This document shows positions 61,961 to 63,211 of a stretch of DNA of 64,000 bases, piece after piece (positions within the stretch are counted from its first letter, which is position 1; each line of letters opens with the position of its first letter). A program made the position numbers and the translations under genes. A model generated the notes under the pieces. The model searched no databases. It was given only the letters and a program-made list of their open reading frames with translations, and was not told the DNA's origin. Source of the DNA: Escherichia coli (GTDB taxonomy: Bacteria; Pseudomonadota; Gammaproteobacteria; Enterobacterales; Enterobacteriaceae). Location: NCBI RefSeq assembly GCF_030384885.1, contig NZ_CP128613.1. One strand, 5' to 3'.

Positions 61961-63211
61961 ATGAAAAGGAAAATATTAATTCTTTCCGCTGTCCTCATTT
62001 CTCCTTTTTCACATGCTGAGTCATGGGAAAGCATTACTAAATCCACTTATCAAAGTTCTGCCTATGCTGAAAGTAAGCAAATAACCAATCAGGATGGCTC
62101 TAAGATAACGGTTTACTATATTGATGCTGCTATGCAGGCCTCCGCTTGTCAGGGTGCTAAATCCAGTGCTCAGAGTGTATTTACTCGGATTAAACCAACT
62201 TATGAGGGTATCTGGCCTGATTCTGAATTCCGTCTTGTTTTTACTGGCGATTGTACTTACAGCGATTCACCAGGGCAGAAGGATAAATATTGGTCTTTAA
62301 CGGCTTATATTGTTGGTAATATTCAGCGTTCTGTTCCTGATGAAAAACCTACTGACCCGACACCAGAAGAAATTTGTGAAGCGAAGCCGCCAGAAGAAGG
62401 TGTATTTAATAATGTTGATTCATATGATGGTGGTCGCTATATCTACTATAACGGCTGTGAATATGAGGCTACTGGTGTCATTGTTTGTCAGGGTGATGGT
62501 ACTGTTTGCGCTGCAACATGGAAGCCTACAGGTGCTGTAGCTGACCCCTCTGATAAACCCTCAACCCCCCAAAATGGTGGTGGTGAGTCTGGCGGTGGTG
62601 AGTCCGGCGGTGGTGAGTCCGGTGGTGGTGAGTCTGGCGGTGGTGAGTCCGGTGGCGGTAGTTCTGGCGGTGGCTCTAGTGGTTCCAGTCTTTCTAAAGG
62701 TGATATTCAGTCTGCGATCGAAGGTGCTTCACCCAAAATAGCCAGCGATATTCATGATAAATTAACGGAGAAAGACACTTCATCAGATGATAAAAAAAAT
62801 GCCGATGAACAAACCAGGAATAATATAAATCGTCTTGACGATTCCATTAACAATCTTACGCGGGGGGCTGGCCGTTTTGCTGACCCTTCAGGTGGTGATT
62901 CTCGTTATGGAAAGGGCGACTCTGAATTAGATGGCGCTTCTACTTTAGCTGATTCTGAATTGGGAATTGAAAAGGATTCTCACGGTGCTTTATGGGAAGC
63001 ATTTTTAAATAAAGGTGCTATGCTGCCTAATTTACCCAATGGTAACGGCTGCTCTGATTTTATTATTTTTCCCGGAGAGGTTTATCAGATTGATATTGGT
63101 TGCGATAAATTACTGACTATTAAAGATGTTCTTTCATGGGTTTTTTATTGCCTTACGTTCTGGTATGTCTTTACTTCTTTAACTTCATTGCTTCGCAAAG
63201 GGGGTGAGTGA
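61961..63211 (+). CDS. Adsorption protein gpIII-like (416 aa): signal peptide, N-terminal receptor domain, TolA-binding N1-like domain, Gly-rich linker, C-terminal anchor domain
   Basis: [19 protein letters not shown] signal; [23 protein letters not shown] resembles Ff N1 (GCLWNATGVVVCTGDETQCYGTW); GGGES x5 linker; C-terminus IDIGCDKL...[17 protein letters not shown] resembles Ff g3p C-terminus. Confidence 0.85.
62576..62689 (+). repeat. Tandem 15-nt repeats (GGTGGTGAGTCYGGY) encoding the (GGGES)5[13 protein letters not shown] linker of gpIII
   Basis: Five consecutive near-identical 15-mers read directly from the sequence. Confidence 0.8.

Follow-up and report, generated by a model that had tools for sequence, protein, structure and literature searches.

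Gene III of the filamentous prophage studied here encodes an attachment protein (g3p) with the architecture of the phage IKe protein. The prophage lies in the window, the whole 64,000-nucleotide stretch of Escherichia coli DNA that was analysed (assembly GCF_030384885.1, contig NZ_CP128613.1). Structurally, g3p consists of a PF21443 domain, a hinge without glycine, an N1-type domain in second position, a single Gly linker and an anchored C-terminal domain. We consider it very probable that the protein acts as an IKe-type attachment protein in an IKe-like two-step entry, in which a primary receptor other than the F pilus would be engaged before TolA.

The open reading frame at 61961-63211 on the plus strand is uninterrupted and comprises 416 amino acids followed by a stop codon. 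Its boundaries coincide with those of the RefSeq 'attachment protein' CDS in an E. coli locus of 99.8% identity (L001). The exact protein is held at NCBI as WP_289787445.1, 'attachment protein [Escherichia coli]', and PHROG 4150 spans it end to end (E 1.5e-270). A longer reading frame with an in-frame start at 61817 was discarded, as it overlaps gene VIII, and as homologues and RefSeq begin at 61961 with a conserved signal peptide. As a whole, gene III is an ordinary, annotated gene, and its protein, Pfam architecture, PHROG family and prophage lineage are already present in public resources. A hairpin was read between gene VIII and gene III; the terminator scan did not flag it. The features of the prophage and the domains of g3p are listed in Table 1.

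Table 1. Coordinates in the window of gene III, its domains and the surrounding prophage and chromosomal features.
Feature	Coordinates (nt)	Strand	Basis or remark
Autotransporter	50765-56233		Upstream of the prophage
hipB, hipA	hipA end 58036		Upstream of attL
attL, imperfect dif-like site GGTGCGCATAATGTCAACGCGTTATGTTGAAA	58113..58144	+	Left prophage end, just after hipA
AbiJ-like/STM4504-family cargo gene	58211-59140	minus	
140-aa ORF			Between the cargo gene and the 60-aa ORF
60-aa regulator-like ORF	59735-59917	minus	58% identical to an unannotated If1 frame
Gene II, replication protein	end 61139	+	57% identical to I2-2 gII
Gene VIII, major coat protein, 80 aa	61672..61914	+	Immediately 5' of gIII; 59% to IKe gVIII; L001 annotation
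Gene III, g3p/pIII attachment protein	61961..63211	+	RefSeq CDS boundaries in L001; PHROG 4150
Signal peptide, 19 residues	61961..62017	+	Aligned to the annotated 19-residue IKe g3p signal peptide; cleavage site by homology
N-terminal receptor-binding-type domain (residues 20-128; Cys63, Cys98)	62018..62344	+	PF21443, 4EO0
Short Pro/Glu-rich hinge KPTDPTPEE, without a glycine run	62345..62371	+	Alignment; 4EO0 end/4EO1 start
Predicted TolA-binding N1-type domain (residues 138-194; Cys 139, 166, 176, 183)	62372..62542	+	4EO1, fd/M13 N1
Single Gly/Ser/Glu-rich linker N(GGGES)5(GGGSS)2GSS (residues 205-243)	62573..62689	+	Sequence
C-terminal domain (residues 244-416; Cys364, Cys381), putative virion-tip anchoring and membrane insertion	62690..63208	+	8B3O alignment
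Hydrophobic anchor (residues 390-411)	63128-63193	+	Within the C-terminal domain
Gene VI, 113 aa, DUF5455	63211..63552	+	1-nt overlap between its start and the gIII stop codon, also present in IKe; 52% to IKe and I2-2 gVI

The g3p sequence was searched against all PDB chains, and Pfam and PHROG were searched as well. Residues 20-128 match the crystal structure of the IKe pilus-binding domain (4EO0, E 3e-26, 47% identity), and Pfam places PF21443, 'G3P, pilus binding domain', at residues 22-125 (E 3.8e-25). The following segment, residues 130-195, matches the TolA-binding domain of IKe (4EO1, E 3.6e-25, 78% identity). N1 of fd/M13 is matched by residues 137-224 (1G3P, 2G3P, 1TOL and 1FGP, E 1e-10 to 5e-13) and PF05357 by residues 135-176 (E 3.6e-5), while the match to N1 of If1 is weaker (2X9A, E 0.0098; chain residues 3-61 against g3p residues 135-193). 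Residues 196-413 correspond to the C-terminal portion of f1 pIII as resolved by cryo-EM in the virion tip (8B3O), in which f1 residues 207-403 align with the C-terminal domain proper (244-416). As the E-values reach 1e-26, these matches do not arise by chance. The functional names follow the PDB titles, namely 'pilus binding domain' for 4EO0 and 'TolA binding domain' for 4EO1, both of phage IKe.

Several features proposed in a preliminary description of the sequence are borne out by these matches. The motif reported there to resemble the TolA-binding domain of Ff phages (residues 165-187, nt 62453-62521) lies in the segment that matches fd/M13 N1 and 4EO1. The N-terminal part preceding it, described as about 130 residues long, is made up of the 19-residue signal peptide and the 109-residue domain (20-128), a length that is right if the signal peptide is counted. 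The single (GGGES)5 linker was correctly placed before the conserved C-terminal anchor, occupying residues 206-230 inside the sole Gly-rich linker. A 15-nt tandem repeat at 62575-62673 encodes this linker. Strains differ in its length, as seen from protein sizes of 401-426 aa in the cluster at 90% identity and from matched spans of 1128 to 1386 nt in E. coli genomes. The N-terminal domain had, by contrast, been called novel, a label that does not survive its homology to the IKe pilus-binding domain, evident from PF21443, 4EO0 and the modelled fold described below.

The domain-wise alignment with g3p of M13, IKe, I2-2 and If1 that had been suggested as a check was carried out as part of a six-way alignment. 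In this alignment, g3p is collinear with the proteins of IKe, I2-2 and the Erwinia phage PEar6 at 54-55% identity, and no N2 homologue is found in canonical order. The g3p proteins of IKe and I2-2 (genus Lineavirus) follow the same order of signal peptide, PF21443 domain, Pro/Glu hinge, N1-type domain, one Gly linker and C-terminal anchor. The disulfide cysteines are conserved, gene VI overlaps the stop codon of gene III by 1 nt in both, and the neighbouring genes VII, VIII, VI, I and IV are 52-73% identical. Identity to IKe differs between the domains, amounting to 47% in the N-terminal, 78% in the TolA-type and 52% in the C-terminal domain. Differences are seen in the linker, which is shorter here and of the GGGES type rather than the GGDT/GGST type, in the N-terminal domain with its merely 47% identity to IKe, and in lifestyle. 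IKe and I2-2 are episomal phages, whereas the phage studied here is temperate and is found in tandem at dif with a cargo slot and a regulator-like ORF.

The g3p proteins of the Ff phages (M13/fd/f1) share the N1-type TolA-binding domain (51% identity to M13, E about 1e-12), a Gly linker and a homologous C-terminal domain with its anchor. Their order is nevertheless a different one, consisting of N1, a Gly linker, the F-pilus-binding N2 and a second Gly linker, whereas the protein studied here has one Gly linker and no N2 homologue. In the six-way alignment, N1 of both M13 and If1 directly follows the signal peptide, and the pilus-binding domain follows the first Gly linker; the N1-type domain of the present protein begins only at residue 138, after the 109-residue domain. 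The If1 protein (2X9A/2X9B) likewise possesses an N1-type TolA-binding domain, with 33% identity, in the Ff order of N1 first and pilus-binding domain second, and this second domain bears no relation to the N-terminal one found here. Of the 'IKe/If1-like' order given in the preliminary description, the IKe half thus stands and also holds for I2-2; the If1 half fails, If1 having N1 first like M13.

Similarity to N2 was sought with a profile of eight N-terminal domains, and none was found to N2 of M13 (hhalign probability 0.13%) or of If1 (1%). The PDB chain search returned no sequence match from g3p to the N2 part of 1G3P/2G3P, and a Foldseek comparison of the AlphaFold2 (AF2) model with the fd N2 structure 9G8E gave no match (E 1.1), in agreement with the earlier remark that the N-terminal domain does not resemble Ff N2. 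Because an N2 homologue is missing, F pili appear unlikely as the receptor, and the suggestion of a pilus type different from F-pili seems reasonable. With 47% identity between the N-terminal domain and that of IKe, the IKe ligand, an N/I2-type pilus, is therefore not transferable by homology.

An AF2 model of mature g3p residues 20-205, built with 11 homologues, reached a mean pLDDT of 93 and a pTM of 0.55. Foldseek superposed its N-terminal domain on 4EO0 (TM 0.95, rmsd 1.2 Å) and its TolA-type domain on 4EO1 (TM 0.90, rmsd 1.1 Å), both of which AlphaFold could draw on in training, so that the model confirms homology and adds no independent evidence. Against N1 of If1, TM values of 0.84-0.87 were obtained. 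The low pTM alongside the high pLDDT would fit two domains that adopt no fixed mutual orientation. We further modelled the TolA-type domain, its native linker and the C-terminal domain of E. coli TolA (TolA-C) as a single-chain fusion. Both domains were folded (TM 0.90 and 0.92), with a placement unlike that in 1TOL (rmsd 14.7 Å, pTM 0.38), so that the model lends no support to the TolA contact.

Gene III is located in an approximately 8.6-kb filamentous prophage related to I2-2 and IKe, which is integrated at the E. coli dif site beside hipA. After the regulator-like ORF, the genes follow in the order gII, gV, gVII, an unannotated gIX, gVIII, gIII, gVI and the start of gI, at which the window ends. 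Protein identities along this backbone are 57% for gII and 40% for gV (both to I2-2), 70% for gVII, 55-59% for gVIII, 52% for gVI, 65% for gI and 71-73% for gIV. With identities of 40-73% to IKe and I2-2, the whole phage backbone appears Lineavirus-like. In L001, the prophage consists of two tandem units of 8569 bp, with an imperfect dif identical to attL at their junction and a perfect 28-bp dif after the last copy; the window stops before attR. All other morphogenesis genes are intact in this near-identical locus. The prophage core recurs in several different chromosomal surroundings and with varying cargo genes. In E. coli UM146, which we take to belong to the ST95 lineage, the same prophage is found at hipA/dif with a cargo of two ORFs.

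This organization resembles that of two published prophages, CUS-1 of E. coli O18:K1:H7 and YpfPhi of Yersinia pestis. Both integrate at dif and form tandem arrays; beside a shared, conserved core of about 7 kb they carry variable ORFs by attL and two small ORFs by attR (PMC4266046). In CUS-1, puvA has been described as the gene of the receptor-binding virion protein, and a link has been drawn between the prophage lineage and fitness in E. coli K1 and in Yersinia pestis (PMC4266046). The present prophage likewise shows dif integration, imperfect dif sites at the junctions, a core of about 7 kb, variable ORFs on the attL side and two small ORFs on the attR side, and differs in its cargo, an AbiJ-like/STM4504-family gene. 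From its likeness to both by published description, we strongly infer that it is of the CUS-1/YpfPhi type. A protein 98% identical to the g3p studied here is labelled 'MULTISPECIES [Enterobacterales]' (P0017), and the g3p of YpfPhi is presumably in essence the protein studied here. A genome-contig scan with the N-terminal alignment found no Yersinia locus, and no paper found by our literature search states the domain architecture of CUS-1 or YpfPhi g3p.

Gene III is present in 50 of 5426 complete E. coli genomes, at 83-99.8% nucleotide identity and usually in at least two copies. At the protein level, the cluster at 90% identity holds 682 members from E. coli, many Salmonella serovars, Citrobacter koseri and 'Enterobacterales', and a circular Salmonella 'plasmid' of 7938 bp is a complete phage genome. 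Given this cluster and the circular phage genome, gene III is probably active. A word-indexed protein search with residues 20-205 yielded mostly truncated or frameshifted fragments, and indicated presence in Salmonella and Klebsiella. The genome-contig scan with the N-terminal alignment returned four loci only, namely two E. coli-like contigs mis-binned in metagenome-assembled genomes, one locus in Izhakiella and one in Rosenbergiella. The g3p proteins of the latter two are 78% and 76% identical over the first 201 residues, and 81% and 78% over their full length. Further, more distant g3p proteins built in this way come from metagenomes and from a prophage carried by conjugative Arsenophonus plasmids. 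Overall, a PF21443-type domain is seldom encountered: an exhaustive search of 1.84 billion proteins gave 14 representatives at 50% clustering. Two of these, the repetitive proteins P0035 and P0036, were rejected as chance matches summed over repeats (hhalign 7% and 0.6%).

All domains of g3p are under purifying selection. Compared with the Erwiniaceae homologues, dN/dS is 0.16-0.17 in the N-terminal domain, 0.04-0.05 in the TolA-type domain and 0.04-0.06 in the C-terminal domain. The N-terminal domain has the highest dN and, in most pairwise comparisons, has diverged further than the other domains. Between IKe and PEar6, dN reaches 0.42 in this domain and 0.06 in the C-terminal domain, and one further homologue (P0033) shows 35% identity in the N-terminal and 79% in the TolA-type domain. 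Across all versions, the invariant positions of the N-terminal domain are mostly Cys, Trp and Pro. Such a pattern would fit a conserved scaffold that carries a changing binding surface, as in a determinant of host specificity.

In the entry mechanism that we propose, cleavage of the signal peptide would leave the N-terminal domain displayed at the virion tip, where this homologue of the IKe pilus-binding domain is predicted to bind a primary surface receptor other than the F pilus. Through the Pro/Glu hinge it would be joined to an always-exposed N1-type domain, the likely binding partner of the C-terminal domain (domain III) of periplasmic TolA. The flexible (GGGES)5-type linker would then lead to the C-terminal domain, which is expected to fix g3p, jointly with pVI, in the virion cap and to insert into the inner membrane at entry and release. 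Work by Jakob et al. in 2012 is said to have found that the TolA site is not masked in g3p of the IKe type. For the three domains, homology, order and fold are established by the present analysis, as are the intact reading frame, its purifying selection and its setting within a prophage. That the first domain binds a receptor and the second TolA, and that the two are independent of each other, with no locked N1-N2 unit of the Ff kind, is taken over from the IKe and Ff proteins that have been solved and studied. IKe itself is listed among the phages whose adhesion protein reportedly binds TolA (PMC10424213).

Two other readings concern the nature of the protein as such. One holds that the N-terminal ~130 residues form a new domain without known relatives and hence a new class of receptor-binding module. 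The missing similarity to N2 of Ff and If1 and the small family of 14 representatives at 50% clustering would point that way, but the reading is refuted by PF21443, by the sequence match to 4EO0 together with its fold (TM 0.95), and by PHROG 4150 over the full length, and is hardly conceivable. The other regards gene III as a decaying prophage remnant without current function. Although frameshifted or truncated copies are present in the databases (P0005, P0009-P0013), many of them originating from one assembly with 15 copies, this is very improbable in view of the intact ORF, dN/dS values of 0.04-0.17, the 682-member cluster, episomal circular forms and the intact morphogenesis genes of L001.

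For an active IKe-type attachment protein with a non-F receptor, two possibilities stand about level. The N-terminal domain may attach to the pilus tip of a non-F conjugative plasmid, for example of the N, I2, P or X type, which would make the phage pilus-dependent like IKe and I2-2. This appears rather unlikely: the homology and shared fold with the IKe pilus-binding domain argue for it, as does the same architecture in the filamentous prophage on conjugative Arsenophonus plasmids, but the domain is 47% identical to that of IKe, and what stays invariant is chiefly the Cys, Trp and Pro scaffold. The PEar phages, which carry a similarly diverged version, moreover infect Erwinia amylovora. The second possibility, for which we have a tentative preference, is that the domain has been retargeted to a conserved, chromosomally encoded surface structure, or that entry proceeds by TolA only, giving a broad host range independent of plasmids. 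Near-identical proteins in E. coli, Salmonella, Citrobacter and 'Enterobacterales' are consistent with this, as are the Erwiniaceae relatives with 76-78% identity over the first 201 residues. A TolA site that is reportedly unmasked in IKe-type g3p would also suit it. YpfPhi infects Yersinia and E. coli laboratory strains including TOP10, a broad host range that speaks for the chromosomal or TolA-only route and against a conjugative pilus; deletions of pilA and psaA were without effect, and no receptor had been found according to the 2014 review (PMC4266046). Infection of laboratory strains in this manner raises the possibility that a conjugative pilus is perhaps not needed. On the other side, a dN/dS of 0.16 in the N-terminal domain indicates purifying selection and hence that the domain does something, and no candidate ligand emerged from the analysis.

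We therefore put forward, as a speculation with somewhat less than even prospects, that the IKe-type 'pilus-binding' fold in this lineage might have as its target a surface structure that is broadly conserved and encoded by the chromosome, instead of a conjugative pilus. If true, such a receptor would explain the near-identical phages across E. coli, Salmonella, Citrobacter and probably Yersinia; the receptor-binding module of YpfPhi/CUS-1 would be identified, and the receptor question would be reduced to a 109-residue domain. The practical value of the finding is small, and the logic of annotation is corrected, the protein being IKe-like, neither If1-like nor the bearer of a new domain. What the prophage lineage of the CUS-1/YpfPhi type gains is a defined candidate receptor-binding module of 109 residues. 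The ligand of this N-terminal domain, if determined, would explain the host range of the dif phages and the extent to which IKe-type domains have been retargeted.

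When the window g3p is compared with P0033, a metagenomic g3p of 406 aa, the TolA-type domain is 79% and the C-terminal domain 64% identical, whereas the N-terminal domain retains only 35% identity. Because identity falls so unevenly, the sequences suggest that the receptor-binding domain alone has been replaced or has diverged rapidly in P0033. A filamentous prophage is also carried by the conjugative Arsenophonus nasoniae plasmid pArsFIN5 (133 kb, MOBF/MPF_F). Its g3p contains PF21443-like and N1-like domains in the same order as the window protein, at 34-40% identity, but features an additional middle region. 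The Gly-rich linker varies in length among strains, with 401-426 aa proteins in the 90% identity cluster. This polymorphism is reflected in matched gIII spans of 1128-1386 nt in E. coli genomes, and it presumably arises by slippage within a 15-nt repeat.

Features of the prophage and its relatives.
Feature	Location	Strand	Description
Cargo slot	window 58208-59660		directly inside attL
AbiJ-like/STM4504-family protein	window 58211-59140	-	NF046078, E 4e-137; Pfam AbiJ_NTD4 and Abi_C
Regulator-like ORF	window 59735-59917	-	60 aa; upstream of gII
Candidate gene IX	window 61557-61652	+	31 aa, MYIVYFFGAYTFGFALFYAVGSFKSFSDRLM; 1-base overlap with gVII stop codon
Hairpin	window 61921-61950	+	AGGGGCA-CTCGT-TGCCCCT, then TTATT; between gVIII and gIII
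Gly-rich linker	window 62573-62689	+	within g3p
pArsFIN5 prophage g3p	L022 4917-6545		542 aa
L021	NZ_CP140410.1		7938 bp
L009	Izhakiella contig		8271 bp; coverage 336
Klebsiella record	NZ_CP132687.1		6814 bp

The left end of the prophage is variable as well. Compared with further copies of the prophage core (L011-L021), the slot inside attL differs in gene content among prophages that are about 99% identical elsewhere. In the window it holds the AbiJ-like protein, which PADLOC matches weakly to PDC-S32. In the other prophages it is occupied by a Fic/Doc toxin or by two ORFs, of 159 and 91, 262 and 94, or 123 and 155 aa. This region looks like an exchangeable defence/toxin cargo slot.

Within the core, the 31-aa ORF is likely gene IX; it is left unannotated in the RefSeq copy L001. 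The hairpin occupies a position equivalent to the annotated stem-loop terminator after gVIII of IKe; it was not picked up by a scan for consensus terminators. Unannotated reading frames resembling the regulator-like ORF are found in I2-2 (43% identical) and in the major intergenic region of If1 (L004 5143-5301; 58%).

At dif, the prophage can be arranged in tandem, as in L001 (8157-24411), where two 8569-bp units are joined at an imperfect dif. The complete genome of E. coli EC5502 (NZ_CP092647.1) matches gIII at 15 places, with several copies frameshifted, which may represent assembly errors or genuine decay. Complete filamentous phage genomes can furthermore be found in sequence records labelled as small circular "plasmids" or as contigs with high coverage. 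As L021, L009 and the Klebsiella record are probably replicative forms, these phages appear to be active.
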